Positions 4,676 through 42,635 of a stretch of DNA of 60,371 nucleotides are shown here, one piece after another. A model generated the notes under the pieces. That model did not search any database, was not told the DNA's origin, and was given only the letters and a program-made list of their open reading frames with translations. The stretch spans positions 1 through 60,371 of IMG/VR virus record IMGVR_UViG_3300026484_000003, one strand, 5' to 3'. The stretch is from a virus (Duplodnaviria; Caudoviricetes). Positions within the stretch are counted from its first letter, which is position 1. Each line of letters begins with the position of its first letter. Both the position numbers and the translations under genes were made by a program.

Positions 4676-5050
4676 CTATGCGTGCCTAAAGTAGCCGTTG
4701 ATTGTATCGCCTATCTCTTCTATTGTGAAATAGTTGAGTGCTTCCGTGACAAGTGGATTTCCATATTCAATCAAGTCTCCTGACTGCTCTTGTCCTACGA
4801 TGAAGTGTACGGCAAGTATTTTTGCTTCATCTGCCGTAAGTGATCTGCCAAACACCTGTTTTTCTGCCTGTGATGTTTCTCCGACTACAAGCTTTTCATA
4901 GAGCACTCCAAATCTCTCTTTTGGATCTCCGTACTTACTTATGTGTAGGATGAGTTGATCGTTATCGACCTCCTCATCCCTAATCTGTAGCTTCTCGTTT
5001 TTAAGAAGCCCTTCTATGTCGTGTCTCCACTCACCCGTAACAAGTATCAT
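4676..5050 (-). CDS. Hypothetical protein coupled to the darB-like gene (same position as P1 ulx)
   Basis: ATGA overlap with the darB-like stop. The identity is from position only. Confidence 0.6.
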   Translation of the reverse strand: MILVTGEWRHDIEGLLKNEKLQIRDEEVDNDQLILHISKYGDPKERFGVLYEKLVVGETSQAEKQVFGRSLTADEAKILAVHFIVGQEQSGDLIEYGNPLVTEALNYFTIEEIGDTINGYFRHA

Positions 5051-8000
5051 GCTAGCCCTTCTTTTTGTAAATTTTCTTCAATCATTGTACCAAGTTTTTT
5101 AAACTTTTCAAAATTCTCTTCACCTAGGTATTCCTTGTAGCCATCCATTGTCATTGCATCGGTTATATCGTTTTTGTATGTTGATATCTTCTTGAGCCTT
5201 GCGGAAGGACTAAAACCGTATGGGTAAATGTAGTTACTTCGGTAGATATTCTCTCCCCTACCTACAAAAACATAACTTTCATCAAGCAGATCATAGAGTT
5301 TGCCTTTAATCATAACAATCCTATCAAAGTTCTCAACAATGTCCTTTTCACTTAGACCGTTTTTGATCTCATCTGAAATTGTTTTTGAGTAGGTTACTAT
5401 CTTCTTTCTTATTGTTTCATCAATGCTGTTAATGTTTGCAAGATCATCTTTATAGTCTTGCCTACCTTTCTCAATAGCACCATGCACAATCTGTTCAACA
5501 TTTGAGTTTTCACTAATTCTTAAATCTCCTGTCAAAATGCGTCCAAGTTTTTCTGTGAAACCTACTTGATCTTTTTTGAGATTGATAATAGCATTGAGCA
5601 TTTTTTTTGCATTGGTCTTGTATGCATCAATGTCTATAGCGGTATTTCCAAATGAAACAAGATACTCTGATTGCTTAATAAGTAAGATTGAGTTAATGAC
5701 ATTCCTTACCGCCACATCTCCACTAACTACAAAATCATCACTAAGTACGGACGGAAGTGCATATCTAATCTTATGATTGACATCGTATACACTTTCTCCG
5801 TATCTTTTTATTGCCAAACGCTGAAAATAGTAAACACTATCTTTTTCGTGATCATACTTGCTTTTTATATTGTCGTTGATTGATTCTCTTAGTGTTTCAG
5901 ACATAATATCGCTTATTTCTGCCTCTTTTTTCTTCTGCTCCTCATGCTTTGCCTTAATATACATTTCTATTTTCTGCTCAACCGTAAGGTCTATTCTGTC
6001 ACCAAACATGACTTCTGCACCACGCGTAATACTTTCAATATCAGATGTATCTACTTTTGCCTCATCGTCACCTTTCTTGACTGCATCAATCCAGTCTTGC
6101 TTCCCATTGATTAGCTGATCGAGGAAGTTATCAAAAGTTCCGTTTTGAAGATACTTATAGACATGAACTTTATCAATAGTGTTTCCTTGCCTTACCGCCC
6201 TTCCCATTGCCTGATGATTTGCATCTGGTGTCTCCGGTAGTTCCATAAGGTGTACTGCTGAAACATCCTTGTTAAAGTCAACCCCCACTTCTCCTGCTTT
6301 ACCAAAGATCATTACCGTCACTTTATTGTCTTGAGAGTTAAACTTTGTTTGAAGATCAAAACCTTTGTCTCCCCCCTTAAAGTAGAACACCTTAGATACC
6401 TCTTTCACTGTGTGTTCAATAAGGTTTCCAATAATGATATGGGATATAAGTGATCTTGAGTAGATAATTTGTTTTGACGTCGGTTTACGCTTGATCTCTT
6501 TTTTCATGTTCTCGATAAGCGTTTGGTATTTTGTGAACTTTTTAATGTCAAATGCCACATCTTTTTTGCCTATAAAACCTGCTTTTTTAAGAGCTGAAAT
6601 AGCCTTAGCCAATACCTTGTCATCTTTTGTTGGAAGATATACTGTTTTGCCTCTCATTGGAGGTCTTGTTGCTTCTGGATGAAGCTTCGTGATTAGTTTA
6701 TTGAGTGGTGTCCTCCATATGTCAGAAAACTTAACTTCCGTTTTAGTATCTATCTCAAGCATACCTGTCTGGTGGTTTAATGAACCCGTTTTAACCTTAA
6801 TTTTAATATTTTCATCAAGTACCGATATTACGGCTTCCTGATCTGTTGTGTTCACCTCTATTGGAACATACCCAAGTCCAACATCAATACCTTGCCCTAA
6901 GCCTCTTGCTTTGCTGATAAATCCGAACATTTCACCAAACTCTTTGGCTAACATTAGCGATGCTACATCATCTTCATTAAGGTCTCCAAGTTCGCCTTTG
7001 TTAAGGTCTCTAACAACTGCCGAATACTTCTCATTCAGCCCACCAAGCATTTTAAAGTTTTCCTTAATGTCTGTTGTTGCTTCAAGATATGCGTTATGCT
7101 TAGAATAGTCCGGCTTTACATTGATTGTATATCCATTCTCTAATGCTCTTGCCTGTTCCTGCTCTGCTGTCCTATAGATAATCTTGTTGTGTCCTATCTT
7201 TTTGAGTAACTTGATATTTTTCAAACCAACCAGTATTTCTTTTTGTGTCATCCCCATACCGTTGGCTTTAACCACCGTCTCCTCTGAAATATCAAAGAAC
7301 ATATCTTCAAACTCTTCCGTGCTTGAAATTCCGTTGCTTTTTAATGTTGATAATGGCGTAGTAAACAGTAGTCCTGTAAGTATTTCGGATGGGCTTGAAG
7401 TCTCCGGTGTAGCTGTCATAAGGATAGTTCCTTTTGAGTCTCCACGCTTGATCGTTTTGATATATTCAGAGAAAAACATCATGCGTGATTTTGTGGATGA
7501 TTTGGCATTGTTTATTCCTTTTGCAGACGACTTTCCTGCTGTTGCGTTCTTGAAATGATGCCCCTCATCAATAATCATCGCATCTACTCCTAAATCCTCA
7601 AGGAAATATGTTGCATTTTTGCCCCAAGATGCAGATGTGATACCAAATTTGTTTAGAGGTGTCGTATTTGTTCGATAGTTTTCATCACCTCCATTCTCCT
7701 CTTTTTTATCCTTGCCTATAAGATAGTCTGTATCCTCATCTGTGAGCTTAATAAACTCTATAGCGGTGCTGTCTGCTATGAGTAGCATTTTATACTTTCT
7801 GCTACGCATAAGCTCCGAAAGATCAGTTTTGTTTTTTGTGTTTACGGTAAGTATTTTTCCCCTCATATCCTCCGTTACTGCCTTCTCAAGCTCTGCAACC
7901 CACTTTGGATATACGGCGTTAGGCACTACAAGCATTGGACGCTTTGCCTTTCCATTGTGGATCATTTGCAAACACGCCATAATGGCTGTAAACGATTTTC

Positions 8001-10506
8001 CAAGTCCGGTATCTTGAGCAATTACTCCTCCTAATTCATTTGCAAACTTGCGTGCATCTGCATTTTGATAGTGTCTCCCCTTCTTGATGATGTCTGATCT
8101 AAGCATACCTTTTAGTTCTGTCTGCTGATCTTCGTTGTACCCATCTTTTGTGTGGTATGTTATGGTTGCTTGAGACTCAAAGTGACTTAATATCTCTTCT
8201 CGATAGTTTGGATTTGACAAAATTTCATTCGTGACAATATTTGAGAACACGGTTTGGTATCTGGAAATTACCGATAAAGCAACACCCTTCAACTGTGATA
8301 CAATCATGGATATATTTTTGCTTTCGGGTAAATATCCGCTCAAACCCCATTCTAAATCTTTGTCGAAATATGTCTTGTTTGACTCTCCACCACTTTGAGA
8401 CACAACAACTCTGTACCAATTGTATTTCATAATTCTACTGTAGCCATCATCCCCGCTGATGCCGTCTATTTTAAGCTCTGAAATTCCATCAATAATGGCT
8501 TTTTCAATTTTTCCTTTCAGTAGCTTATTCTTATAGATAACATCATATAGATCAACATACATTTTAGAATTGATTTTTCTCACAAACTTCAATGAAAATT
8601 TTACATTTTCAATAGGCATTACATCCTTGTATGCCTCCACCGTTTTTTGTTGCTGTTCAATCTTTTTCTGTAGCAGGTCTTTTGGTAGAATTGAGCCATC
8701 AATCATAGATACCTCGTCAAAAACCTTATCGAACGGTTGCTTGTCAACCATTGTTAGGTATCCGTCTTTTGACATAACCTTGCTTCCGGCAATGATAACA
8801 GAATCACTCATAAGCTCATCATCTGAAAAATCATTTTTGTCATAGTGTGGGTAGTATTCATTCTCTTTTGTGATTTGCTTTTTCCCGACAAAAACCTGCT
8901 CTTCCGAGTTCTCAAGCAGTTCGCTTATGTCCTCGACAATTTCGCCGGTAGAAAGATCAATCCTGTTGATCCATCCAAGCATTTTCACAAACAAGGTGTT
9001 ATGCAGTTTGTCTTTATGTTTATCGAGTTTGCTATCTTTTTTCCTAATCAGTTCTATGTCTGATTTATACTCTAAAATCTTCTCTTTTGAGTATGGGTGC
9101 GTAAGAAGTAAATACCGTAGTGCTTCTGAAAGAGATTTATTGTCGAGTATGATTTTCTGGGCATAGAGCAACTGCTCATCATCTTGTGATAGGCGAATTG
9201 ATAATTTATGCTTGTTACTAATCATCTGCTCAAAGTCTGCTTTGCTTTTTTGCTTTTTAACAAGCCTGTCTTTGATGAATGACAATTCTGCCGTCAGTTC
9301 ACTTCTTGTTGATGTTTCAAGTTCAATATAGTTTATCGCATCGCTTGATACTTCTCCATTCCCTGCAATAACATCACGATAGTCGAATGTATTGCTGTAT
9401 TTTGCAGTATTGTGAAGTAGCTCTTTCTTGATATCATCAAGGCTTTTCCCTTCCGGCAACACAACTGTATCACGCTGTGCCATGTGGTGTAGCTTTTCTC
9501 CCTTTTCTTCTGCTTCACGGTGCATCTCTTCTTTTGATTTGAAGCTACCAAGTACCGCTTTTTTGTTCAGGTCAAAATATGTTCCATCAAGAAATTGTGA
9601 GCTGTGTTGATCTTCATGGATACGCTCATTAAATAGCTTCCAGTCTATGTTGTCATTCTTGATTGCTAATGTAACATCAAGCGGGTGTTTCTCAAACACA
9701 AGAATATCTACTACTTGCTCCGTGCCAGTATCTTTAAACATTGCACTCGGTAGCCTTACGCCACCCACAAAGCTACCCTTTTGTAGCATTTTAAGCCTTG
9801 TTGCTTTACGGTCTTTGCCTTTACGCTGTACTGTTGATGATGTGGTTAGGAATACCGCCCTTTTGTTTGGCTTGAGCAGATCAAGAGATTTGAGAATAAA
9901 GTAGTCCTCATTTCTAAGAACATCAGGCATATCTATCTTTTTATACTTTTCACCCCTTACCCCAAACGGAACATTGGTAATGACTGCATCAAAGGAGTTG
10001 TCGCTAAGCGAGTGTGAAAACTCCTCAAAGCTAACCCCCGCCTGAATTTCAGAGTTATCATTGAGTATGTCTGCTATCTTCGCAGAGGTCTTATTTAGGT
10101 CGCATCCAATGATCTGCACTCCATTTGGTGCTTGGCTTGAGAACGCTCCTGCACCGGTGCATGGATCTAAAATTTTATCGCCGTGTTTAACATCAAGAAA
10201 ATTCCAACTTGCCCTTGCAACGCTCTGTGGCGTGAAATATTCGTCATTGTCACCACCGACTGCACCACCGAAACCGGTATATTGCCTAAGTACCTCTTTC
10301 TCCTCCGATGTGTAGAATGATTTGTTTTGAGAGATTATCTGTTTTGCTTTCTGGTTAATCTCTTGTCGCTCTTTAATGTTGGTTACAATTTTGTCCGCCT
10401 CTGCAACATTGAGAAGAACACTGTATGTTGCTATCTTTCTATCAGCAACCCCATTCCCAGATGATCGTTTTTGATTTACAACTTGATCGTATAAATGTCG
10501 TATCAA
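5047..10506 (-). CDS. darB: DarB-like virion protein: N6-adenine methyltransferase fused to an SNF2-type helicase
   Basis: LRQYTGFGG...EYFTP, ILDPCTGAG, NVPF; helicase motifs AQDTGLGKS, IIDEGH, MTATP, QAMGRAVRQGN; 1819 aa. Confidence 0.88.
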   Translation of the reverse strand: MIRHLYDQVVNQKRSSGNGVADRKIATYSVLLNVAEADKIVTNIKERQEINQKAKQIISQNKSFYTSEEKEVLRQYTGFGGAVGGDNDEYFTPQSVARASWNFLDVKHGDKILDPCTGAGAFSSQAPNGVQIIGCDLNKTSAKIADILNDNSEIQAGVSFEEFSHSLSDNSFDAVITNVPFGVRGEKYKKIDMPDVLRNEDYFILKSLDLLKPNKRAVFLTTSSTVQRKGKDRKATRLKMLQKGSFVGGVRLPSAMFKDTGTEQVVDILVFEKHPLDVTLAIKNDNIDWKLFNERIHEDQHSSQFLDGTYFDLNKKAVLGSFKSKEEMHREAEEKGEKLHHMAQRDTVVLPEGKSLDDIKKELLHNTAKYSNTFDYRDVIAGNGEVSSDAINYIELETSTRSELTAELSFIKDRLVKKQKSKADFEQMISNKHKLSIRLSQDDEQLLYAQKIILDNKSLSEALRYLLLTHPYSKEKILEYKSDIELIRKKDSKLDKHKDKLHNTLFVKMLGWINRIDLSTGEIVEDISELLENSEEQVFVGKKQITKENEYYPHYDKNDFSDDELMSDSVIIAGSKVMSKDGYLTMVDKQPFDKVFDEVSMIDGSILPKDLLQKKIEQQQKTVEAYKDVMPIENVKFSLKFVRKINSKMYVDLYDVIYKNKLLKGKIEKAIIDGISELKIDGISGDDGYSRIMKYNWYRVVVSQSGGESNKTYFDKDLEWGLSGYLPESKNISMIVSQLKGVALSVISRYQTVFSNIVTNEILSNPNYREEILSHFESQATITYHTKDGYNEDQQTELKGMLRSDIIKKGRHYQNADARKFANELGGVIAQDTGLGKSFTAIMACLQMIHNGKAKRPMLVVPNAVYPKWVAELEKAVTEDMRGKILTVNTKNKTDLSELMRSRKYKMLLIADSTAIEFIKLTDEDTDYLIGKDKKEENGGDENYRTNTTPLNKFGITSASWGKNATYFLEDLGVDAMIIDEGHHFKNATAGKSSAKGINNAKSSTKSRMMFFSEYIKTIKRGDSKGTILMTATPETSSPSEILTGLLFTTPLSTLKSNGISSTEEFEDMFFDISEETVVKANGMGMTQKEILVGLKNIKLLKKIGHNKIIYRTAEQEQARALENGYTINVKPDYSKHNAYLEATTDIKENFKMLGGLNEKYSAVVRDLNKGELGDLNEDDVASLMLAKEFGEMFGFISKARGLGQGIDVGLGYVPIEVNTTDQEAVISVLDENIKIKVKTGSLNHQTGMLEIDTKTEVKFSDIWRTPLNKLITKLHPEATRPPMRGKTVYLPTKDDKVLAKAISALKKAGFIGKKDVAFDIKKFTKYQTLIENMKKEIKRKPTSKQIIYSRSLISHIIIGNLIEHTVKEVSKVFYFKGGDKGFDLQTKFNSQDNKVTVMIFGKAGEVGVDFNKDVSAVHLMELPETPDANHQAMGRAVRQGNTIDKVHVYKYLQNGTFDNFLDQLINGKQDWIDAVKKGDDEAKVDTSDIESITRGAEVMFGDRIDLTVEQKIEMYIKAKHEEQKKKEAEISDIMSETLRESINDNIKSKYDHEKDSVYYFQRLAIKRYGESVYDVNHKIRYALPSVLSDDFVVSGDVAVRNVINSILLIKQSEYLVSFGNTAIDIDAYKTNAKKMLNAIINLKKDQVGFTEKLGRILTGDLRISENSNVEQIVHGAIEKGRQDYKDDLANINSIDETIRKKIVTYSKTISDEIKNGLSEKDIVENFDRIVMIKGKLYDLLDESYVFVGRGENIYRSNYIYPYGFSPSARLKKISTYKNDITDAMTMDGYKEYLGEENFEKFKKLGTMIEENLQKEGLA

Positions 10507-10527
10507 GGAATACCCCTTTTTAGTTTT

Positions 10528-10558
10528 ATTGTAGTCTAAAAAGAGGTCTTTTTTTCAA
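10528..10558 (-). promoter_or_regulatory. Putative late promoter TTGAAA-N19-TACAAT (darB-like gene)
   Basis: Same architecture upstream of five other structural operons. Confidence 0.65.
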
Positions 10559-10562
10559 ACGC

Positions 10563-12899
10563 TTATGCTGTCTTTCCTATGTGTGCCGTACTAAGCCTGT
10601 CAAGTTTTCTGGAAAGTTGTGCAAAATCAATTTTGTACCACTCTCCATCATTTGAATACCCGTCTTGATAGTTTCTGTGATATATTTTTTCTGCTTCTTG
10701 CTTGTTTTTTGCCCCAAGAATAAATTTATCCTCATCAAAAGTTCCATTATTTCGTAACTGCTTGATATAGAAAACTGGTCTCTGCTCCATTTGCTTCACT
10801 GTTGCCTCATGCGATAAGAAAACATCTACCTCGTCACCGTCAGCACCGTGCGTTCCATCAAAATAACCATAGTCGTCTTGTAGTTCACTTTCCCATTCTG
10901 TACCGTTATCGTCAATCCCGTTCCTAAATGTTCCACGCTCTGACTCTATCGTGATAGCTATTCCTCCGATAGTGATCTTTTTGTCAGGCAATAGGACACT
11001 GTTTTCAATAGAATCAAAAACTGTTGTTCCATTCAACAGGAATTGTGCAAGTTCGGCTTCGGTCTTTGTAACCGCATAAGCATTTGATACGCTCCCCGTA
11101 CTTGCATCGTATTGAACCATTGACCACTCAGACTTATCAACATTTCTACCAAGTTTGCTATTGTATTCTTTCCACTCTGAATATTCTGGCTTGTAGCCCT
11201 CATTGCAGAGCTTCTCAATGAAGTCCTTTTTCTCCATAACTTCACCATCGTATCCAATTAGATTAGATAAGACTTTTTTAGCCCTTCCCCTTCTCATCGG
11301 CGTTAATGTATTGAGATAGTGGTGTGCTATGCCCTCTTCTTCCTTCTCCTCTTCTTTGCGTGCAAGTTCGGCTTCAATCTCTTTTGCTTTTGCCAATTCA
11401 CGCTCACGCTCACGCTCCTGTTCTCTTTTTACTTTTCTTTCCATATCATCCCTGATCTCATCTTCACTTGGCATCGTAATTGGCATAATGACTGTTTTTG
11501 TTCCATCTTCTGCCGTTATAATAAACGGGAGTGTAGGCTCATCCATTTCAAAGGTGATCTCTTTGCTATCTCCTATTGCATCTAAGACATATTTTGAAGC
11601 AAACCCGATACTCTTATTGCCCATGTTGCTTTTTGTCTCTATTTTGCCTATGTTGATCGTTTTAACGGTTGGGTGCATAGTATCTTCGCCTTCAACATGA
11701 TATGTTGAAACATTAATGTTGTTATCAGAGAATGCGAAGCGTACTTCATCGGCTTTTCTAAGTATTGCTTCTAGTTCTTTTGTATTGATTTTTACGGAGG
11801 GCTTAGGATACATAGGTACAACTCTTTGATAGTCTGGGAAACGCCCTACTATTCTATGTGCCGTGTGTTTGTAGTCTTTTGTTTCCGTATATGTTACTGA
11901 CTTACCATCTGACGCTTCCCCTATTTTGATGATCTCAATATCTTTATCAACCACATTTTTTTGAATGATATACTGCCCATCTTTACCAGTGACCTTAAAC
12001 GGTTTTGAGATAGTCAGTCGCCTTGTATTAGTTCCTACTGCTTTTGCCTCTCCGTTTTCAGCGTCAATCAATATCCCGTTCAGTTCAAATTTTGGGTTGT
12101 TTTTGTCTGATGCTTTCTGTGTCGTAAGTAACGATTTAAGCATGCTTTGAGTGATTTTAATAGTAAGGTCTGCATTGCTTAATTCAAGGGCTTTACCTGC
12201 AATGTCGTAAGTTGTTTTTATCCCTCCGTCAGTGTCTCTAAATTCACCATTATCATTAATGTAAATTTCACCCGTTACTGATTTTAGATCATAGGCTTTC
12301 ATTCCGTTAATGTCCGGTATATCAAGTTTCTCTTTTGTGATCAGCGTCCGGTCAGCATCGGTTATCTTGAGTTCTCCATTTTTGATAGATATGTATGTGG
12401 TGTCGAGTTCTCTCTCTGTAGCACCAAAAAACTTGATAAACTTCTTGATTTTACTTACCGTATCTTTGCCTATTATCTTGCTGTAAGGCAATGGCTTTGC
12501 CGTTGCTTCTTTTGATGATTTTATAATGGTCGGGATCATATTTTTTACCGCTTCCTTAAATTGATCCATTGGATTGGCATCTACTTCTGCACCAATAGCA
12601 TAAGCTCCAAGATCAGGCACAACAACATACCAATACCCTTTTTGCGGAATAATGTAAACAGTTCCGACCTCTTCGGTTTCAAGCTTTCCTTTTGCACTTG
12701 CCAATCTAAAGATAGCGATATGATCTGGGTTGAGCATATTTCGCACTCTTACATATCCTTTGGGTGTTTCTTGATTTCGTAATTTATATTCTGCTGTTTT
12801 TTTGTCTCTTTCTGCCTTTATGTCTGCAAGAATTTCTTTTTTACCGCCCATAGCGGTCATTTTAACCTTGACCGCTTTTTCAAATAGTTTTTTAATCAT
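10563..12899 (-). CDS. Polyvalent internal-head protein: beta-clamp-like domain + coiled coil + DarA_C-like domain + InPase-type pyrophosphatase domain
   Basis: Clamp motifs NNPKFELNGILID, GTNTRRL, GRFPDYQRVVP, IGFASKYVLD, TVIMPI. DarA_C-like KKDFIEKL...VTKTEAELA. InPase ITIESERGTFRNG...DYGYF.GTHGADGDEVDVF...FDEDKFILG. Confidence 0.8.
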   Translation of the reverse strand: MIKKLFEKAVKVKMTAMGGKKEILADIKAERDKKTAEYKLRNQETPKGYVRVRNMLNPDHIAIFRLASAKGKLETEEVGTVYIIPQKGYWYVVVPDLGAYAIGAEVDANPMDQFKEAVKNMIPTIIKSSKEATAKPLPYSKIIGKDTVSKIKKFIKFFGATERELDTTYISIKNGELKITDADRTLITKEKLDIPDINGMKAYDLKSVTGEIYINDNGEFRDTDGGIKTTYDIAGKALELSNADLTIKITQSMLKSLLTTQKASDKNNPKFELNGILIDAENGEAKAVGTNTRRLTISKPFKVTGKDGQYIIQKNVVDKDIEIIKIGEASDGKSVTYTETKDYKHTAHRIVGRFPDYQRVVPMYPKPSVKINTKELEAILRKADEVRFAFSDNNINVSTYHVEGEDTMHPTVKTINIGKIETKSNMGNKSIGFASKYVLDAIGDSKEITFEMDEPTLPFIITAEDGTKTVIMPITMPSEDEIRDDMERKVKREQERERERELAKAKEIEAELARKEEEKEEEGIAHHYLNTLTPMRRGRAKKVLSNLIGYDGEVMEKKDFIEKLCNEGYKPEYSEWKEYNSKLGRNVDKSEWSMVQYDASTGSVSNAYAVTKTEAELAQFLLNGTTVFDSIENSVLLPDKKITIGGIAITIESERGTFRNGIDDNGTEWESELQDDYGYFDGTHGADGDEVDVFLSHEATVKQMEQRPVFYIKQLRNNGTFDEDKFILGAKNKQEAEKIYHRNYQDGYSNDGEWYKIDFAQLSRKLDRLSTAHIGKTA

Positions 12900-12935
12900 C
12901 TTACACGTCCACCCATTCCTGAATAATAAAACACA

Positions 12936-14129
12936 TTACTTCTCCCCCTTCCGGTAAGAAAAATCACCGTTAATAGGCTTGATGATCTCTTTCCCAAGCC
13001 TGATCTCAAAGTCCGGTAACTCTTTCAGTTCCTTACCATCAACGGAGATAGTAATGTGTGGCTTGTAGCTGTCATAATCCCATGTAGCACCGAGACGTTT
13101 CGCCCTATTGTATCTGGCTGTAAGTTTTTTGGACTCAACAAAGAGGACTAAAACTTTTTCTTTTCCAAGAATACCGCTTCCAGTGATCTTGTCAATAATG
13201 ATTTCATCATCTTTAGGCTCTAAATCAACCTTCTTTTTTGAATATACGATTGTGATATGTGGATCTTCTACGGGTACAAGACCTTGAGCCTTCACCCACT
13301 CTTTCAACTGCTTTGCATTGACTACTTTCCGACTTACATAAGTTCCGGTTTCTACTGCATCAAGTTCTAGGTTTGCTTCTTTGAGTTTTTTTACCGCCCC
13401 CTTCCATGCCTGATATGTTTTAAATTCACGCTCTTTTTTCTTTACTGCGTCCATATTCGCACCAAACAAGCCTCCACCATCAATGCTGTCGTTTTTTACT
13501 TCACCCTCACCTGCAATTTCAGATAGTATATTGATTACCTCACTGTAGAGTTCGTGATCCCCAAGTTTGTCCTCATTTGCTTCGATAAGGTCAACTTGTG
13601 GCTCAATGCTCTCCCAGTCCTCAATGGTTGCATCATCGTTTGTGATAATGTCCTTTATCTCTTCCATTGCGTAGGTTAGCTTTGTGATGAGTTGATCATC
13701 TGGTTCTGTTGTTTCGAGGTCGTGGCTTTCGAGTGCTTCTAATACTTTTTTCTTTGTGAACTCTTTTGCTTTGCTTTCGAGATATTCACTAATAAGTGCA
13801 TGAGCAGTCTGAACATTGGATTGTCTTGTTACCATAGTCGGAGCTTCATCTAAGTATCTTTGCACTAACTCTTCTGCAAGTGTAAAGTCTGTAAATGTTT
13901 CAAGCTTCTCCGTATCTTTAATTCTGGTTAAATTCATAGCAAGTTGGCTTGACTGTGTTGTGATCTCACTTTTGCTTAACTTCTCTCCGTCACCGCCAAG
14001 TTTTATATATAGCCCTTTGATTGCCTTCTGGATTTCCCTCTTTGCCTTAAAGCCCTTTTCGGCTTCAAGTTCTGCGTACTTTGCTTTGATCTCTTTTTGG
14101 ATAGCTCTTTTTTCTTTAAACCCCAACAT
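12936..14129 (-). CDS. Internal-head protein with a C-terminal Acb1-like 2H phosphoesterase
   Basis: Two HxT motifs (PHITIVYS, YKPHITIS) with YVSRKVVNA and GATWDYDSY context, as recalled for T4 57B/Acb1 relatives. Confidence 0.8.
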   Translation of the reverse strand: MLGFKEKRAIQKEIKAKYAELEAEKGFKAKREIQKAIKGLYIKLGGDGEKLSKSEITTQSSQLAMNLTRIKDTEKLETFTDFTLAEELVQRYLDEAPTMVTRQSNVQTAHALISEYLESKAKEFTKKKVLEALESHDLETTEPDDQLITKLTYAMEEIKDIITNDDATIEDWESIEPQVDLIEANEDKLGDHELYSEVINILSEIAGEGEVKNDSIDGGGLFGANMDAVKKKEREFKTYQAWKGAVKKLKEANLELDAVETGTYVSRKVVNAKQLKEWVKAQGLVPVEDPHITIVYSKKKVDLEPKDDEIIIDKITGSGILGKEKVLVLFVESKKLTARYNRAKRLGATWDYDSYKPHITISVDGKELKELPDFEIRLGKEIIKPINGDFSYRKGEK

Positions 14130-16639
14130 TATTCATTCTCCGATTTCATAAGTGCTGTAAGCTGATCGGCTAATCTGTTTAGCTCATCTTCATATTTATC
14201 CATCAAGCCTTTTTCTTCAATGAGTTCTGCGACTTCATCAAGTTTTTTTTCAAATCTTTGTGAGTCGGGTTGCTCTGCCACCTGCTGCAGGAAGCCATCT
14301 ATCATGTGGTTATCATCTTCTGTTTTTGTCTGGTTCTCATGTAAGAAGCTCATAGCACCCTTGATGATGCCACTCATAGCGTCTTTGTGTTTCACCATAT
14401 CCCAAAGTGCAAGAATTTCTCTGGCATCATATTTGTCTGCATCTGCTACATTATACATAACCCCACCGTGACTATCTTTGATGATCTGCTTGTAAACTTC
14501 GTTTTCTTTTATTCTGGCTTCGAGTTCTTGATCTGTAAGATCATTGCTCTCTGGAACTTCATCCCCATTACCCCCCTTGATCTCACTAAGTGTCTGCTTG
14601 GTGTAATAGAAGTCCAACTCTACACCAAGACGGGTAAGTTCCTCAGTGTTGACATACCCAAGTTCTGCCATTTCACGATCACCGTTCAAGATAGCATAAC
14701 CATAAGCATCTGATGGGCTGTTCGCTTCTGTAATGTACCAGTCACTCCCACCACTAAAGTAGTGAAGTTGTACCTGTACGCTGTCGCCTTCACCGTCTTT
14801 TTCATATAACTTTGGTAGATTTGTAATTGTTTCGTAAAGATCATTCACAACATCGCTAAACTCATAATCTTCACTACCGATATTTTGGCTTAGGATTGAG
14901 TATTGGGCTTCGCTCATAAAGCCTTTGATTGCTTCGAGTTTGCCTTTTGTGGATAGTTGCTTATTTTCTTCCCACGCATCCTGCTTCTCAAGTATCTCCA
15001 TCGCTTTATCCACAATGAGGTTTGATACTGACAACATTTTCATATCATCAATTCTATCAACCTCTTTTTCTACCATTTTTCTAACATCCTCTTTCGAGTA
15101 TGTTTTGTCTGGATACATATCTCCAAGCACTTTGCTTGAAATTGGCAATGCGTACCGACCGATTTTCTCTGCCGGATCTCCTGCTCTTTTTTGCTCACCT
15201 TTTAGTTCCAAATGTCTAACCTCAATAGTTCCTTTCTTCACATTCCCGTAAATGCCAACCACTGATGCACGCCCATCTTCACCGTATGCAACAAATTGTT
15301 GTGCTGTGCCTACCATATCCCATCTATCTGCTTCGATAAGTGCTTTCTGCTCGCCCAGTGAAAGTTCTCCAAAGTTTCTAATAATGTCAATGTTTTTATT
15401 CAGTAGGTCTGTGCTGTTTACTGCATCTCTGTCATAATCGAACATATCATCATCTTCTCTCTGCTTATCCTTAGCCAACTCTTCATTGATCTTCTCGATA
15501 ATAACTTTTCTCGGTCTATTTGTAGATAGCCATCTCTCTTTTACGCTCCACCCCTCTTTCTCTCCAATAGGTAGATACAGAACGCTTCCTCTTCCATCTT
15601 CACCTACTGAAAATTCCTTCTCTGCTGTAATGAATGAAGCGTACTGATGATGATCTACTTCATAATCAAGTTCGGTTTTTTCTTTAATAAATTCAGCATT
15701 ACGGATAAGATCAACTGACGGCATTTCTACACCACTTTTATCTTCAATCTTGTCCGCACCTATTGTAATAAAATGGATCACTTTTTTCATGTGTGTTATG
15801 ATTGATTTTTCTACACCTTCAATGGATACTTCTTTTTTGTCGATTGCGTCCAGTGTTGTACCGCCTACAGTAAATGAGTAGTTAATGCCTCCTTTCAGCT
15901 TCTCATCTTTTGCAAATGCTTCGCGTATTGCAGTGATGTATTTTTCTGATCCAGTAGGCAGGTTGATCGTGTAGGTGTTCTCTTTGATGTCATTGATGAT
16001 CTTATTGGCTTCCGTAACAACATCACTCAAGTCAAGCTTCATGCCGTCAATCTCTTTTTCAAGTTTTTTGATCTTTAACTCATCATCATCAATATTGTTT
16101 GCAACAAACTTCCTGTGCGATGCCTCAATGATCTTTTTCAGTCTTGCTACTGTAAGCGCTGTATCAATGTCAGTGTCTCCGTTTTTGTAGATACCTTTTG
16201 TAATGTCCTTGTTGTTTAGCATGAAGTGTGTAATAATCACATCTTTGTTTGGTTTATAGTTCTTAAAATCCTTGATATTTCTTGCAAGGACTGTAAGAAT
16301 TTGCCCATCGTCAAACTCAAGTGTGAATGGTTGATATTTTGTTTTTTCACCCTTTCCTACGCCAGATACATTGAAGCCATAATGCACCGTAAATACATTA
16401 TCGTCTGCATGAACTTTGTCGTGTAGTTTTTGAGATAGCTTCTTAGCCACTTTGTTTACTTCCTTCCAAAGCAACTGTTGGTTTTCAGATGTGATCGCAT
16501 CCATAGCAACACTGCTGTCGCCAAAAGGATAGTTCATGTCAAGCTCTAAAAGCCTACTTGCTAAATTGTCTGATTTCTGGAAAATGAGTCCATCCAAAAA
16601 CAGTTCATCTCTTACTTCTTGAAATTCTCTTTGTGTCAT
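14129..16639 (-). CDS. darA: DarA-like internal head protein (DarA_N + DUF2958-like domain)
   Basis: FDDGQILTVL...FMLNNKDIT...VARLKKIIEASHRKF (DarA_N-like). LPKLYE...LHYFSGGSDWYITE...AELGYV...VELDFYY (DUF2958-like). Confidence 0.75.
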   Translation of the reverse strand: MTQREFQEVRDELFLDGLIFQKSDNLASRLLELDMNYPFGDSSVAMDAITSENQQLLWKEVNKVAKKLSQKLHDKVHADDNVFTVHYGFNVSGVGKGEKTKYQPFTLEFDDGQILTVLARNIKDFKNYKPNKDVIITHFMLNNKDITKGIYKNGDTDIDTALTVARLKKIIEASHRKFVANNIDDDELKIKKLEKEIDGMKLDLSDVVTEANKIINDIKENTYTINLPTGSEKYITAIREAFAKDEKLKGGINYSFTVGGTTLDAIDKKEVSIEGVEKSIITHMKKVIHFITIGADKIEDKSGVEMPSVDLIRNAEFIKEKTELDYEVDHHQYASFITAEKEFSVGEDGRGSVLYLPIGEKEGWSVKERWLSTNRPRKVIIEKINEELAKDKQREDDDMFDYDRDAVNSTDLLNKNIDIIRNFGELSLGEQKALIEADRWDMVGTAQQFVAYGEDGRASVVGIYGNVKKGTIEVRHLELKGEQKRAGDPAEKIGRYALPISSKVLGDMYPDKTYSKEDVRKMVEKEVDRIDDMKMLSVSNLIVDKAMEILEKQDAWEENKQLSTKGKLEAIKGFMSEAQYSILSQNIGSEDYEFSDVVNDLYETITNLPKLYEKDGEGDSVQVQLHYFSGGSDWYITEANSPSDAYGYAILNGDREMAELGYVNTEELTRLGVELDFYYTKQTLSEIKGGNGDEVPESNDLTDQELEARIKENEVYKQIIKDSHGGVMYNVADADKYDAREILALWDMVKHKDAMSGIIKGAMSFLHENQTKTEDDNHMIDGFLQQVAEQPDSQRFEKKLDEVAELIEEKGLMDKYEDELNRLADQLTALMKSENE

Positions 16640-16642
16640 TTT

Positions 16643-17266
16643 TTAAACCCTTACTGTTTTGTAGTTGTCTTTGATGTCGTCTGCCGACTCCTGATCGTCA
16701 AATGTTACGATTTCGCTTTGCTTCTTAGTCCATCCGTTTCTGCCGTAGAACTCACCCTCTTTATTGAGTACGATAAATTTACCGCTTCCTTTTTGAAGGT
16801 CTTGTTTCAATGCTGTAAGTCTGGATAGTGTCAATTCCTGATCTTCATCGTCACCCAGTTGGTCGATCACCTTATTCATATCCGCTTTGCTTACCTTGAC
16901 TTTCATTTCTGCCTTTTGTTCTCTTCGGATAGTCCTTACTACTTCTCTTCCAAGCGTTGCAGGGGAGACCTTTACTCCTGTTTCGTCTTTACTGATTGAC
17001 TCAATAATTTTGTCTTTTTCTCTTTGCGTATCAACAACAACACGTGCTACATTACCGCCTTTTTCAACAAACAGAAGAATGTCGCCAAATTCCAGTTCAA
17101 GGTCATAGATGATTGCCTGTCTTTTTGTGGTTGGTGTTCTGTAGATTCTGTGATCGTTGTCGTGGACTCCGATAATTGGAATGTTATGTAAGTTTTTTTC
17201 TATCTCTTTGTAGAGTTTTGAAGATCTCACCTCTTGAGGTGTCATTATTTGTTTAGGAAATTGCAT
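16643..17266 (-). CDS. Probable Hdf-like head protein, first gene of the dar operon
   Basis: Immediately upstream of darA, as hdf is in P1. Sequence resemblance is weak. Confidence 0.4.
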   Translation of the reverse strand: MQFPKQIMTPQEVRSSKLYKEIEKNLHNIPIIGVHDNDHRIYRTPTTKRQAIIYDLELEFGDILLFVEKGGNVARVVVDTQREKDKIIESISKDETGVKVSPATLGREVVRTIRREQKAEMKVKVSKADMNKVIDQLGDDEDQELTLSRLTALKQDLQKGSGKFIVLNKEGEFYGRNGWTKKQSEIVTFDDQESADDIKDNYKTVRV

Positions 17267-17293
17267 AAGTAGCCCTTTAAATATTTTACATCT

Positions 17294-17324
17294 ATTGTAT
17301 CAATTTAGATGGTGTAAAATTCAA
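17294..17324 (-). promoter_or_regulatory. Putative late promoter TTGAAT-N19-TACAAT (dar operon)
   Basis: Shared architecture with the other late promoters. Confidence 0.65.
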
Positions 17325-17327
17325 AAC

Positions 17328-17855
17328 CTAAAGGTAGGCTCCTATCTTTGATTTAATGTCGAGTGCATTATCTTTTTCCTTGTTTGGGCTGTCTGCACTT
17401 GACCCGCTTGAAGGCGTACTGTCTGCAACCGATTGTGCAAGATCAGCCATTAACTGAACTAAGTTTGTTGCATCATTCCTGATATTTACCTTTTTGCTCC
17501 AAATGTCAACCTGATTTGCAGATTTTTCGGATGTTCCGGCATTGTCTCCGTTCGCACCCATTATTTTTATGATGTTGTTGCCATATATTTGCACTTCACT
17601 GTTTTCAATTCTTGAAATTCCACTCTTGATAAGTGAAATTCCTTGAGATAGTGAAGAGAGTGCATAAACAACGCCATAATCATCTTCAACAAGCAATACT
17701 TCTGTTCCGATTTTTATGTTTGGCTGTTGTTCTCTCTCATCTAAGTTCAACGGGCTACATTTAACAACATGGTCTATAACTTGATCTGTGTTGTATAGCT
17801 TTACTGTCAAGAACCTATCTTGAACAGACACAACCGTTCCAACTCTAATGTTCAT
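17328..17855 (-). CDS. Probable baseplate spike (gpV/gp5-like)
   Basis: N-terminal OB-like IRVGTVVSV...IKIGTEVLL followed by beta-rich repeats; follows a hub-sized gene. Confidence 0.6.
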   Translation of the reverse strand: MNIRVGTVVSVQDRFLTVKLYNTDQVIDHVVKCSPLNLDEREQQPNIKIGTEVLLVEDDYGVVYALSSLSQGISLIKSGISRIENSEVQIYGNNIIKIMGANGDNAGTSEKSANQVDIWSKKVNIRNDATNLVQLMADLAQSVADSTPSSGSSADSPNKEKDNALDIKSKIGAYL

Positions 17856-18660
17856 CTGGTATCTCCCCAAGTGTTATAACTGTCTTTACTTTGCTTTTGA
17901 TGTAGATTGTATTTTTCTCCATTACGCAGTATTTTATTTCTTTGTGCGTTATCCCTGCCCCGATATTGATGGTTATATTTTCGTGCGTTGCCTGAATAAT
18001 ATACTTTGGATCAAGCAGGGTATTTAAACCGTTGATCTCATTCTTTGAAATTGCCGGTATATAGTATGGTCTCCCGCTTCCTCTTTTGGTGTTGGCTTTC
18101 GTACCGTCACCCTCTATTGAAGCATAGTTCTTTCTGCTTCTCATTGAATGGATTTTCTTTTCAATCTCTGGCTCTGCAATATACTTCTCGTCATCGCCTT
18201 CATATTCTTTAGAATGTCTTTGTATGATCTTGAAATTTTCGTCAATGGCTAAGGTAAGCCCTTTTTTTCTAAGCTCGAATATTGCTATCTGTAATTGATT
18301 TTTACCACCAATGATGTATTTTTTAAGGCTTATCCCCCATACATGATCTTCCGGCTTATAGAGGTTGTATTTTAAATTGTAGCTTTCTTTGTGCATGAAA
18401 ATATACGCCGTATCAATCTGATTTGTAATTGTGTTTGGGTGTGGGTTTATTTCAGACAGTGTAAGTTCTATGGTTTTACCATATGCTGTTACAATCGTGT
18501 ATGTTTCATCAATGATAAGTTTTTCGGCGTCTATTCTGTGTTCAATCGCCCCAAGTTCTACAATAAATGGGATGTCATAAATATATCCATTTACATAGGC
18601 ATAGGTAATGTCTTTCGCAGATAGTATGTCCGTACCGTCTTTTGCGACTGCAATTACCAT
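17845..18660 (-). CDS. Probable baseplate hub protein
   Basis: Size and position before the spike-like gene. Confidence 0.4.
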   Translation of the reverse strand: MVIAVAKDGTDILSAKDITYAYVNGYIYDIPFIVELGAIEHRIDAEKLIIDETYTIVTAYGKTIELTLSEINPHPNTITNQIDTAYIFMHKESYNLKYNLYKPEDHVWGISLKKYIIGGKNQLQIAIFELRKKGLTLAIDENFKIIQRHSKEYEGDDEKYIAEPEIEKKIHSMRSRKNYASIEGDGTKANTKRGSGRPYYIPAISKNEINGLNTLLDPKYIIQATHENITINIGAGITHKEIKYCVMEKNTIYIKSKVKTVITLGEIPDEH

Positions 18661-18669
18661 TTTCTACCT

Positions 18670-19374
18670 CTATTTGTGGTGGTTTTCAATATCAAATTTG
18701 ACAATGTATTTTTTCATCACATTAACGCCGTCACGCAGCATAAAGAACTGCTCCCTGATCTTAAAATCAATAGCGAGTGTAACTATTCCGCTTTCCTGTG
18801 CGCTTGACTCCGAAAATGAAGCAGATTTCACCCCTACAAGTCGAATATGTCCGTAATCATGCAATACATGGTTTTGACCTGTTTCCTTGTCCTGTAGGAG
18901 TACCTTGTAGTTTATTCTCTCATTGTTTGCCAGAATGTTCAGCGTATGCAACGCTATCTCTTTTGAAGCATACTGTGATCTTGTCAAAACAACAATCTGA
19001 ACAGGAGTTTCGTATGTGAACATTTGCCCTGAAAGTGTAAGTTTGTCTGTTTCATCTTCGACATTTACGATTGTAATAATATCCTGCATCTGAAATTTTT
19101 TTACATTTCTTCCAAATGATGATGGGTCTATCGCATTGGACTGTGCAACTATGATTTGTGGCAATAACTCCATAGGATTGTCGCTCTTATTGTTAAGTGA
19201 TGTAATCAGCCTCTCAAGATCATCGGATAGGCTTTTTCTGGTGATTGAAACAATGTCTCTTTCACATAGATCAAGCTCATCATATCCAGTAGCATTTGGT
19301 ATCTTTTTGATCTTGTCGTTTAGCAACTTAGCAAAAGTTTTGATGCTTGTGTCGTGATTATGTACCAATAGCAA
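18670..19374 (-). CDS. Probable tail completion/terminator-type structural protein
   Basis: LLPQIIVA...YETPVQIVVLTRS pattern; late operon context. Confidence 0.4.
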   Translation of the reverse strand: MLLVHNHDTSIKTFAKLLNDKIKKIPNATGYDELDLCERDIVSITRKSLSDDLERLITSLNNKSDNPMELLPQIIVAQSNAIDPSSFGRNVKKFQMQDIITIVNVEDETDKLTLSGQMFTYETPVQIVVLTRSQYASKEIALHTLNILANNERINYKVLLQDKETGQNHVLHDYGHIRLVGVKSASFSESSAQESGIVTLAIDFKIREQFFMLRDGVNVMKKYIVKFDIENHHK

Positions 19375-19378
19375 CTTA

Positions 19379-19636
19379 TTATCCTATTGGCAGAAATTCG
19401 TAGTTGAAGCGACTGTCACGCAGTATATAGATGTCACCTCTTCCAGTATCTATAATTTCATTTTGCAACACTTGTTCACCGCTTAAAACAGAGGGTGGCT
19501 CTTCGGTTGTTGTGTACCCTGCTTCTGCCTGAAAACCAACATTTTTGAATTGTGTAAAATCTTCTGTGCTGATCTTCATCCACTCCTTTGTAGTTCCATC
19601 AACTTTTGGTATTTTGATTGTTTCTTGCGTATCCAT
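19379..19636 (-). CDS. Hypothetical structural protein
   Basis: AAAGG RBS; first gene after a late-like promoter (TTGATT-N18-TAAAAT). Confidence 0.55.
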   Translation of the reverse strand: MDTQETIKIPKVDGTTKEWMKISTEDFTQFKNVGFQAEAGYTTTEEPPSVLSGEQVLQNEIIDTGRGDIYILRDSRFNYEFLPIG

Positions 19637-19685
19637 AAGTTACCTTTATGTTTTTGCCTATTTTAGCGGTTTTGTGCAAAAAAAA

Positions 19686-20246: not shown

Positions 20247-20268
20247 TGTTTTTTATCTCCAAATTAAT

Positions 20269-20562
20269 CTAATTGCTGTTTTGAACCATGACATTTTTTT
20301 TAGGCATTGTGTAGTCTATCCCCATCTCTTCAAGCTCATCAATATACGCCACCATAGCTTTGTCAAGATACTTTATTTGGTGATCTCTCCCAGACACCTC
20401 TTCATATTCACAGTCCAATGGAAGAGATTTTAACTCTTCCACTAATTTATGTTTTTTATTCCTTGCACCTTCAAGTTTACGCATCATTACAATATCGTGA
20501 TCTACTCCAACAAATTCTTTCGGGTCAATTCCAAGAAGATCAATAGTTTTTGGTCTGCTCAT
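20269..20562 (-). CDS. Hypothetical protein
   Basis: Translationally coupled ORF. Confidence 0.65.
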   Translation of the reverse strand: MSRPKTIDLLGIDPKEFVGVDHDIVMMRKLEGARNKKHKLVEELKSLPLDCEYEEVSGRDHQIKYLDKAMVAYIDELEEMGIDYTMPKKNVMVQNSN

Positions 20563-20882: not shown

Positions 20883-20895
20883 ATTTATCTCCTTG

Positions 20896-21363: not shown

Positions 21364-21404
21364 GCTTCCCCTCTACCACAAAAACTATGCTTTGTAAGCC
21401 TTCC

Positions 21405-21617: not shown

Positions 21618-21630
21618 TTTTTTATTCCTT

Positions 21631-41582: not shown

Positions 41583-42635
41583 TTAATATTTAAACTCGAA
41601 CATATCAACCGTTGGATCGTCACGGCGTGTTTTTTTAGGTTTCCTGATGCTGTCAAGCACTGCTTCATCGAAACTGTATTGATCTCTATTCCCAACCGAT
41701 AGCAAACTGCCAAATGATGCACTATCCAAAACAATTTCATCATTCTCGATTTTAAGTCCTGCTGTTTCTATTGCATCGCTTAAAACCTTTAGCCTTTCAG
41801 CCTTCTCATTAAGAATATTGATCTTGCTATTTAGAGGTTCTACGCTGTCGAGTACCGCATCTTCAACTTCCTTTTTGTTTTGCTTCTTGAGCGTTTCTAT
41901 TTTTTCTTTCTGCCCTTTGATCGTGATATTGCAGTTATCTATTGTGATCTTCTGCTCATCTATCTTCTCTTCAAGTGTTGCTATGGTGTCCTGCATTGCT
42001 TTTATTTTGCTTTTGAACTCCAATGCCTGTGATACATTGTCTTGATGTACCAAAAGGTCTTTGGCTTCATCATACAGATCATCGTGTGTTCCGATAGCGT
42101 CAACAACCGCATCGTGAATGGCTGTATCGAGCTGACATGACCCATCACTGCAAATCGAGTCCATCACTACACGGTTTCCGTTGAAGTTCGGAGAAAGGAC
42201 AAAATCACTTCCGTAAAATATACCTTTGTTCACATCCCACACAAAAGAAAAACCACCAATCCCGTTTTCAATCATCTTGATAACGCTTTTTGTTTTGTTC
42301 CCTACTGTTTCTACAAGTAGTGCTTCGTATGAAACAATCTTGTCCTTGATTGAGAGTTTCGTAACCTTTCCGATAGGCTCTTGCTCCTCCCCAGTATTAT
42401 GGTTCCGCTCATTTGCCAAATACCCCTGTTCCTTGTGTCTTGCACCGTGTCCGTAGAAAGTCATTGCATACCCGTCTCTGATAGCCTTCTGGACTTCTTT
42501 TGCCCGGATAAGTTTCTGCACTTTTGCAAGGTTGTAGTTACGCGGCATACCGAAATTGTGACCGTGTTCGGTGACATCAAAACTTATAGATACTTTATGC
42601 GTTCCATTTCCTAAATCTTCGATTGTATTCTTCAT
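41583..42635 (-). CDS. Prohead protease with a C-terminal scaffold-like coiled coil (P1 Pro-like)
   Basis: FYGHGAR, IGGFSF, FYGSDFVLSPNFNGNR; directly after the portal gene. Confidence 0.8.
   Translation of the reverse strand: MKNTIEDLGNGTHKVSISFDVTEHGHNFGMPRNYNLAKVQKLIRAKEVQKAIRDGYAMTFYGHGARHKEQGYLANERNHNTGEEQEPIGKVTKLSIKDKIVSYEALLVETVGNKTKSVIKMIENGIGGFSFVWDVNKGIFYGSDFVLSPNFNGNRVVMDSICSDGSCQLDTAIHDAVVDAIGTHDDLYDEAKDLLVHQDNVSQALEFKSKIKAMQDTIATLEEKIDEQKITIDNCNITIKGQKEKIETLKKQNKKEVEDAVLDSVEPLNSKINILNEKAERLKVLSDAIETAGLKIENDEIVLDSASFGSLLSVGNRDQYSFDEAVLDSIRKPKKTRRDDPTVDMFEFKY

Follow-up and report, generated by a model that had tools for sequence, protein, structure and literature searches.

An Acb1-family phosphoesterase domain joined to a lineage-specific helical region in a Dar-like gene cluster of a distantly P1-like phage

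Introduction

Acb1 is a phage 2H phosphoesterase that degrades the signal molecules of CBASS, the antiphage signaling system that works with cyclic oligonucleotides. It has a catalytic HxT/HxT tetrad and the stacking residues Y12, W74, F107 and W147, its glutamate E141 touches the adenine N6 and thereby accounts for the adenosine requirement, and its pocket accepts di- and trinucleotides only; a test of the cleavage of cyclic tetra-adenylate (cA4) by high-performance liquid chromatography is mentioned in a figure legend (Hobbs et al. 2022, PMC9117128). Domains of the 2H type were also described as fusions to MuF or portal in the polyvalent proteins of phages, for which an RNase function was the first suggestion and degradation of the nucleotides of nucleotide-activated counter-invader defence the other proposed role; there, 2H, DarA-N and InPase are listed among the polyvalent domains that are restricted to phages and likely packaged (Iyer et al. 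2017, PMC5512222). The capsid of phage P1 is lined by DarA and Hdf, both of which are required for packaging of the other Dar proteins, the Dar proteins are ejected with the DNA, and Pro cuts off the amino-terminus of DarA (PMC12810830). Furthermore, Acb1 was detected in the viral particles of a Vibrio phage according to a preprint (10.1101/2024.12.24.630238), and a virion ejection protein inhibiting a CBASS effector was reported (10.1101/2025.07.23.666291). Here we analyse a gene encoding a 397-amino-acid (aa) protein that joins a helical amino-terminal part to an Acb1 domain, located next to a gene with a DarA_N domain in a complete virus genome of 60,371 nucleotides (nt) (Duplodnaviria; Caudoviricetes; IMG/VR record IMGVR_UViG_3300026484_000003, positions 1 to 60,371). 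This whole stretch is termed the window and its 397-aa product the window protein.

Published work already covers the enzyme family, the Dar system and the principle that 2H domains can be packaged in heads, whereas the carrier, a bona fide Acb1 domain within a Dar-like gene set and a lysine, K384, in place of the adenine-contacting glutamate are new here. Among the papers listed by our search, outside of which subscription journals lay, there was no account of Acb1 within a Dar-like cluster. We assign a probability of roughly 0.55 to the reading that the product is an active hydrolase of the Acb1 type, borne by a lineage-specific carrier and acting as a head-internal and co-injected member of a Dar-like kit.

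Results

Sequence and predicted fold of the carboxy-terminal domain

The gene (12936..14129, minus strand) encodes a helical amino-terminal part followed by the Acb1 domain. A first-pass annotation made from the letters alone had placed an Acb1-like 2H phosphoesterase at 12936–13349, a segment comprising the stop codon and aa 261–397 of the 397-aa open reading frame (ORF). Pfam matched the Acb1 family (PF23474) to aa 261–391 (12957..13349, minus strand; domain and tail together reach aa 397) with an E-value of 1.7e-30 and 106.1 bits at a cut-off of 27, covering profile positions 1–142 of 144. This match is far beyond chance, and Acb1 was the sole Pfam family above cut-off within the 397 aa. 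Likewise, a six-frame Acb1 search of the record yielded the same stretch (E 1.8e-31, 104.4 bits) as the single Acb1 match in the record. Among solved structures, Acb1 (PDB ID: 7t26) was matched by sequence at E 7.5e-10, and tblastn against phage records returned gp57B of T4-like phages at ~31% identity, with 80% query coverage reached by none. The strings quoted in the first-pass annotation are located at the residues it gave, with ELDAV at 255–259, YVSRKVVNA at 264–272, HITIVYS at 291–297 and GATWDYDSYKPHITIS at 347–362, and H291 and H358 are indeed the histidines of two HxT motifs. In a 65-row family alignment (A2), the columns of the first motif (H291-I-T293; codon of H291 at 13257..13259, minus strand) hold H in 63/65 and T in 64/65 rows, and those of the second motif (H358-I-T360; codon of H358 at 13056..13058, minus strand) hold H in 63/65 rows and T in 58/65, with S in 6/65. 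The residues near-invariant in this alignment are present in the window protein as Y264, N271, H291, T293, S297, G347, D351, Y355, P357, H358, T360 and E381.

The AlphaFold2 model, for which 65 aligned sequences were used, exhibited a predicted local distance difference test (pLDDT) value of ~96 across residues 260–390. In the full-length model the amino-terminal part was all-helical at lower confidence, with residues 209–226 and 255–257 disordered. Since the Acb1 domain opens with a strand that begins in this model at residue 262 and is preceded by the low-confidence linker 255–257, which follows a helix formed by residues 223–252, the earlier proposal that the domain starts right after ELDAV agrees with the model. 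A Foldseek search of the PDB gave Acb1 7t26 with E 2.7e-9 and a template modelling (TM) score of 0.76, the Acb1 of phage BCSR5 with E 8.8e-6, and LigT (5ldm) with E 1e-3 and a TM score of 0.49. VIA-align, run over 48,161 chains, superposed the model on Acb1 7t27_A with Z 16.6 and a root-mean-square deviation (rmsd) of 1.9 Å over 129 of 140 residues and on BCSR5 Acb1 (9q2y_B) with Z 13.5, whereas the LigT-like chain 4qak gave Z 9.9 at an rmsd of 3.6 Å, further LigT-like chains had Z values no higher and rmsd values no lower than these, and other unrelated 2H enzymes gave Z 9.9 or less. The superposition on Acb1 that had been proposed as a check thus identified Acb1 as the closest structure (Z 16.6 compared with 9.9), and because it scores far above the LigT-type chains, the nearest structure is not of the LigT type. 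Together, Pfam, Foldseek, VIA-align and the intact catalytic tetrad bear out the proposed identity of the carboxy-terminal domain as an Acb1-family 2H phosphoesterase, an Acb1-type assignment that by sequence and model is close to certain.

The 2H fold as such would also suit an RNA-end-healing 2',3'-cyclic phosphodiesterase of the LigT type or a Usb1-like RNase instead of a signal degrader, alternatives raised by Iyer et al. for the 2H domains of polyvalent proteins (PMC5512222). In line with such an RNA-directed function are a weak Pfam match to LigT_PEase (E 8.4e-5, 23.1 bits, below its cut-off of 23.3), the match of the window protein to PHROG 755, which is named 'RNA ligase' (E 6.5e-24), and the presence of K384 where Acb1 has its adenine-contacting glutamate. 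However, Acb1 is far closer both by sequence (106 vs 23 bits) and by structure (Z 16.6 and 1.9 Å vs 9.9 and 3.6 Å), and the annotated window genes include no RNA ligase gene. We therefore consider an RNA-processing enzyme very unlikely.

For the active site, we mapped the residue numbers of Hobbs et al. 2022 onto the window protein through gp57B of phage JS98, and under this inferred mapping Y264, Y352 and F390 align with the stacking residues Y12, F107 and W147. Based on sequence and model, the domain is very probably an active hydrolase of cyclic oligonucleotides. By analogy, cA4 is an unlikely substrate, because the Acb1 pocket fits only di- and trinucleotides (PMC9117128). For the same reason, the reach against type III CRISPR (clustered regularly interspaced short palindromic repeats) systems that the first-pass annotation had entertained appears limited.

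A Dar-like gene cluster around the Acb1 gene

Upstream of the Acb1 gene lies a gene for an 836-aa protein (14129..16639, minus strand) carrying a DarA_N domain at aa 45–172 (PF18788; E 7.2e-8, 32.7 bits, cut-off 27). The ATG of the Acb1 gene overlaps the TAA stop codon of the DarA_N gene (TAATG), with GGAG located 9 nt upstream, an arrangement indicating that the two genes are translationally coupled. On the downstream side, a 778-aa protein (10563..12899, minus strand) consists of a sliding-clamp-like region and a carboxy-terminal InPase domain of the polyvalent type (Pfam InPase, E 7.5e-33), and it matches PHROG families bearing the names minor head protein, virion structural protein and DarB-like. 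The set continues with a DarB-like N6-methylase and SNF2 helicase of 1819 aa (5047..10506, minus strand; phrog_11801, E 1e-132; Pfam N6_Mtase, SNF2-rel_dom and Helicase_C), after which a cytosine-type DNA methyltransferase gene comes next. Among metagenome contigs, we found one locus related to the whole window protein, on a contig (L002) that keeps the order DarA-like gene, Acb1 fusion and clamp-like gene. Compared with polyvalent proteins, which hold at least two effector domains per polypeptide, the window protein carries Acb1 as its sole family; its gene neighbourhood is that of packaged effectors, with DarA_N upstream, InPase and N6_Mtase plus SNF2 downstream, and the same order on L002.

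The record represents a complete virus with a 128-base direct terminal repeat (1–128 and 60244–60371), and its genes identify the phage as a myophage distantly resembling P1. When the window ORFs were compared with P1 by tblastn, matches were obtained to prt (9.8e-20), pro (1.4e-8), darB (2.2e-29) and darA (3.3e-4), as well as to ssb. The portal gene (42637–44277, minus strand) accounts for the prt match, and directly downstream of it, as in the P1 gene order, lies the gene for a 350-aa Pro-like head-processing protein (41583..42635, minus strand; the pro match). The P1-like genes for portal and Pro, the PacB-type terminase and a PmgG-like protein are located at 41583–44277, 46801–48522 and 52631–53440, respectively, all on the minus strand; besides the PmgG-like gene, sheath and tube genes are present. 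The large terminase (TerL) shares 30% identity with PacB and 34% with the corresponding protein of Acinetobacter phage ABMM1. This 34% match and the G+C content of the window of ~39% are the sole basis for a hint at an Acinetobacter host.

Two side observations concern these P1-like genes. The gene for the single-stranded-DNA-binding protein (SSB), similar to P1 ssb, spans the terminal-repeat junction, and the PHROG name of the Pro homologue, 'tail fiber protein', is the same mislabel that P1 pro bears in its RefSeq record.

Domain architectures across the Acb1 family

We compared aa 251–397 with 1.84 billion representative proteins in a HMMER pass, which yielded 1842 proteins at E ≤ 1e-3, including 321 at E ≤ 1e-10. 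The architecture counts cover the best 150 of these 1842 matches, or 148 after removal of the window protein and one of its close relatives (P0003, see below). In this set of nearest matches, 30 proteins were of 200 aa or less and 118 were longer, indicating that the stand-alone, T4-like form is a minority among the nearest relatives (30/148). For this reason, 'Acb1' hits annotated as cytoplasmic enzymes may often be wrong. A Pfam scan (E ≤ 1e-5) of the 79 matches of 300–1300 aa, which left out 60 of 300 aa or less and 9 of more than 1300 aa, found Acb1 in 79/79. The accompanying families, counted per family such that one protein may be counted twice, were Peptidase_S78_2 (10/79), Phage_portal_3 (9/79), Phage_Mu_F (4/79), ART-PolyVal and ChaB (3/79 each), Phage_portal and Peptidase_S78 (2/79 each), as well as Portal_Mu, DUF2213, InPase and PhiKZ_VTX (1/79 each). 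The remaining scanned matches mostly lacked a second Pfam family, the same situation as in the window protein. From the matches above 1300 aa, 5/9 were scanned, where four of the five add an SNF2 helicase, NUDIX, ART, or MuF plus topoisomerase IB, and one contained Acb1 only.

Cyanophage Pam3 has a portal protein of solved structure (PDB ID: 8hds, chain A) that likewise ends in a domain assigned by its sequence to the Acb1 family. Residues 451–620 were matched by the A2 profile with E 6.4e-40, compared with 1.8e-33 for the Acb1 of Erwinia phage FBB1, and by a single-sequence search with E 1e-5. Searched for the terms 'Acb1' and 'phosphoesterase', the Pam3 paper gave zero occurrences of either (PMC9942802).

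Packaging of the window protein into the virion is thus somewhat favoured by analogy, because of the coupling to the DarA_N gene, the presence of InPase and DarB-like neighbours in a phage resembling P1, and the frequent fusion of this domain family to head proteins. A virion-internal carrier, as the first-pass annotation had put it, is on the same grounds plausible.

The amino-terminal part and its relatives

The amino-terminal 255 aa are helical and had only four relatives (P0002–P0005) in a database of 5.8 billion proteins, and a comparison with Pfam and PHROG families gave no match for this part. P0002 (499 aa) is the same protein with two insertions, and P0003 (448 aa) has another leader and shares the middle part and the Acb1 domain with the window protein. 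P0004 (366 aa) shares the leader and the middle part and does not carry Acb1, and P0005 (585 aa) shares the leader and has other carboxy-terminal content. The leader (aa 1–47; 13989..14129, minus strand) is a basic helical hairpin with an isoelectric point (pI) of 9.8 and two similar halves, FKEKRAIQKEIK and FKAKREIQKAIK, and is common to P0002, P0004, which is devoid of Acb1, and P0005 (alignment A3). A variable helical stretch separates it from an acidic helical module (aa 141–226; 13452..13709, minus strand; pI 4.05), the amino-terminal segment that is alignable in 4/4 relatives and that ends in a DSI-GG-LF stretch, disordered in the model. A short basic helix follows, and then the linker NLELDAVE (aa 253–260; 13350..13373, minus strand), leading from the last amino-terminal helix to the first Acb1 strand with pLDDT values below 50 at 255–257. 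In P0002 and P0003, ~68 additional aa are located just upstream of this linker, so that the tether to the enzyme differs in length. The recurrence of leader and acidic module with other carboxy-terminal content in P0004 and P0005 indicates modularity.

As a separate observation, P0002, P0003 and P0004 contain the insert KFTGD.DID.SF.KG.YDAEWDG..G between the basic helix and Acb1, or at the carboxy-terminus in the case of P0004, and this insert is absent from the window protein (13365–13400 region).

In further searches with the amino-terminal part, none of the fold matches stood out. The structure Atlas held no usable match by features, and structural TM scores were 0.46 or less. Modelled alone, this part reached a poor pLDDT of 55, and the best matches of that model were generic helical hairpins (Foldseek against a viral library, E 0.71; VIA-align, Z 8.4 over 61 residues), which therefore speak neither for nor against a known fold. 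Within the window there was no paralogue, the best blastp match having E 0.008 under permissive settings, and the leader (aa 1–60) was not found among proteins of 696–2000 aa, which is weak evidence. Relatives of the whole protein had no confirmed locus in viral contigs or in genome contigs, P0005 and the DarA-like protein gave no locus in viral contigs, and a megablast of window positions 10000–20000 against phages returned no match.

For the neighbouring genes, we observed that the 778-aa and the 1819-aa proteins, the latter with a TTG start, begin alike, with MIKKLFEKAVKVK (12861–12899, minus strand) and MIRHLYDQVVNQK (10468–10506, minus strand), respectively. The pattern fits no other window ORF of at least 50 aa, and the homologue on L002 begins with MIKSLFDKAVKVK. 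These similar amino-termini could be a shared loading tag; no statistic can be attached to the pattern because it was derived from the pair itself. The clamp-like region of the 778-aa protein matches phrog_947 (E 1.6e-18) and, weakly, DNA_pol3_beta_2/3, and a charged coiled stretch links it to InPase.

From these elements a further-reaching proposal can be formed, which we put forward as tentative. Leader and acidic module would constitute a new exchangeable capsid-loading carrier that needs the DarA-like protein, its cargo being Acb1 here and in P0002 and other content in P0004 and P0005, the shared amino-termini of the neighbours would be a second tag, and the injected Dar kit would extend to destroying CBASS signals pre-emptively.

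The first-pass annotation also had the domain released by cleavage; for a cut at ELDAV, the present analysis offers a short disordered linker and a Pro homologue only. A packaged protein cut at or near ELDAV by the Pro-like protease would deliver a free Acb1 domain of ~16 kDa into the cell. Such processing would be in keeping with the disorder of the model around 255–257, with the P1 Pro homologue adjoining the portal gene, with the conservation of EL(D)AVETG in P0002 and P0003 and with the trimming of the DarA amino-terminus by P1 Pro (PMC12810830). Yet this conservation says little, because the two proteins are close relatives, 93–95% identical in the domain, and most portal and MuF fusions of the domain reach the capsid without needing cleavage. 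Moreover, no Pro cleavage motif was found here; to our knowledge, none is known. The neighbouring proteins likewise yielded no repeated site, although no search aimed at one was made. Release by cleavage thus appears improbable.

Gene position, expression signals and the case against head carriage

A number of observations weigh against an active, head-internal and co-injected hydrolase, and we consider them together, beginning with the gene order. The Dar-like cluster lies distally in a leftward array of tightly packed genes, which it ends, with exonuclease, O-like replication and NinG genes, which starts at a divergent region near 25.8–26.4 kb and shows gaps of at most 61 nt between co-directional genes from 21617 to 4676. 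The structural operon is separate from it, running from ~58.5 kb to an amidase gene at ~31.8 kb (31787–32299, minus strand) that closes it, and the recombination genes lie across the divergent region from the leftward array. Judged by position, late expression is no more likely than early or middle expression, and the earlier statement that the protein is made late is not borne out by the location of its gene, at the end of a replication and NinG array and outside the structural operon. Neither of two promoter scans gave a signal. The P1 late-promoter box AAGTKAYTW occurred 11 times compared with 8.0 expected, none of the sites being well placed, and a sigma-70 scan of 2900–22000 was at chance level (54 vs 54.5).

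The comparison with P1 and with other phages adds further points. Homologues of Hdf, DdrA, DdrB and Ulx gave no tblastn match at E ≤ 1e-3 from window ORFs of at least 50 aa, which means that four of the six P1 Dar proteins were not found at this threshold. The amino-terminal part had no match to known head proteins, capsid-targeting sequences or P1 Dar proteins, with hhalign probabilities below 1% against P1 DdrA, Ulx, DarA and DdrB. Stand-alone Acb1 acts from the cytoplasm in T4. ABMM1, whose terminase makes it the nearest cultured relative, carries a DarA_N gene and no Acb1. In phage G, the proteome data did not contain the Acb1 homologue that this phage encodes (PMC12484599).

With respect to the pocket, the position aligned with W74 carries no aromatic residue but G or I, in a loop of uncertain alignment, and K384 is aligned with E141, in a column where the 65 A2 rows show E 28 times, A 11 times, K 9 times and R 5 times. 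As this column varies within the family, it marks specificity and not membership. Base preference and substrate range may therefore differ from those of T4 Acb1, given K384 at the position of E141 and the missing aromatic residue at that of W74.

In an alternative account, the same enzyme would stay unpackaged and be made in the infected cell from the leftward replication/nin unit, like T4 Acb1, and the amino-terminal part would serve oligomerisation, localisation, the binding of a host factor or regulation. The tightly packed co-directional array shared with NinG and replication genes (21617–4676), the lack of a terminator-like site on the minus strand before 3117–2966, the amino-terminal part without a detectable link to head proteins, and the absence of the phage G homologue from the proteome data of that phage (PMC12484599) all fit synthesis in the cell. 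Against it stand the translational coupling to the gene of a DarA_N protein, whose founding member is head-internal (PMC12810830), the flanking InPase and DarB-like proteins, classed as packaged by Iyer et al. 2017 (PMC5512222), and the nearest relatives of the domain, in which fusion to portal, protease or MuF is frequent. We regard a purely intracellular enzyme as a possible, though doubtful, account of the locus.

The search for shared signals also brought up the 9-mer ATTGAAATA, which occurs in exactly three copies in the genome, all on the minus strand and intergenic (21833–21841, 33796–33804 and 58610–58618). The copies are located upstream of the array ending in the Dar-like cluster, of 33435–33701 and of the putative capsid gene. 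It is a weak candidate for a shared promoter element and a lead for co-regulation, no more than a lead because it emerged from an open k-mer search.

Other features of the phage and of its cultured relative

The only long plus-strand block of the window (26361–31692) forms a recombination and nucleotide module, with genes for RecT, a PDDEXK nuclease (DUF3799), a CxxCxxCC protein, a dUTPase and YopX. The putative capsid protein (550 aa) gave no tblastn match to phages, and the sole basis for its assignment is phrog_1014 together with the similar length of P1 gp23. In ABMM1, the DarA_N gene is located two genes after the portal gene, and the order within 16609–34179 is a 3451-aa ORF, portal, a 217-aa gene, the DarA_N protein (650 aa) and a 483-aa gene; the annotation calls each of them hypothetical. 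An Acb1 match inside the 'integrase' gene of ABMM1 (tblastn E 0.004) was dismissed, as a Pfam Acb1 search of the ABMM1 record came back empty.

Discussion

What the analysis shows is the identity of the domain with its fold and conserved residues, the order of the genes, the kinship with P1 and the frequent fusion of the family to head proteins. What we infer for the window protein, namely catalytic activity, substrates, packaging, ejection and any processing, can be arranged into a course of events. The carboxy-terminal domain would be a metal-independent 2H phosphodiesterase of the Acb1 type, most likely linearising CBASS signals that are 3'-5' cyclic di- and trinucleotides, and would be tethered by a short flexible linker to the lineage-specific helical part of 255 aa. 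Its gene would belong to a set like the P1 Dar genes, comprising the DarA_N protein, the Acb1 fusion, the clamp–InPase protein and the DarB-like methylase–helicase. The fusion would be made together with the DarA-like protein, loaded into the procapsid by its amino-terminal part and ejected with the DNA, so that the cell would receive the hydrolase prior to all phage gene expression.

If the enzyme is head-carried, it would act ahead of all phage gene expression, and this timing would explain how a phage can blunt CBASS even if the signal appears at a very early stage. The concept of the P1 Dar system would thereby be widened from anti-restriction to anti-signalling, and if the amino-terminal part is a true carrier, the InPase domain perhaps extends the injected kit to other nucleotides. 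The gain is incremental, since the general prediction dates from 2017 and the detection of Acb1 in virions was reported in the 2024 preprint. The locus provides a clean test case, with a bona fide Acb1 domain, a carrier without other recognisable function and an adjacent DarA homologue.

Compared with the known Acb1 enzymes (T4 gp57B and the Acb1 of Erwinia phage FBB1, 7t26/7t27), the window protein has the same family and fold at ~30% identity, the HxT/HxT tetrad, and, under the mapping through JS98 gp57B, the aromatic residues Y264, Y352 and F390 aligned with the first stacking tyrosine, F107 and the lid tryptophan. It differs in architecture, as the known form is a stand-alone protein of ~150 aa whereas here a helical part of 255 aa stands in front of the domain, and in gene context, as its gene lies in a Dar-like cluster and not beside gene 57A.

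With the polyvalent proteins described by Iyer et al. 2017 (PMC5512222), the locus shares the domain type, the company of DarA-N, InPase and DarB-type domains and the proposed role. In contrast to these, the Acb1 domain of the window is not fused to a portal, MuF, protease or other effector domain, its only partner being a helical part of uncharacterised nature, and four adjacent genes share out the 'polyvalent' set. The description of Acb1 came after the 2017 paper.

The likeness to the P1 Dar system consists of a DarA_N protein and a DarB-like methylase–helicase in a phage that also has P1-like portal, Pro, PacB and PmgG. P1 differs in having no Acb1 or InPase member, and its system is known as anti-restriction only, whereas the window phage is without detected Hdf, DdrA, DdrB and Ulx (tblastn E ≤ 1e-3). 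Finally, in Pam3 gp3 (8hds) the carrier is the portal, whereas here it is a helical part of no known kind; Pam3 gp3 nonetheless bears the same domain on a protein known to be part of the virion.

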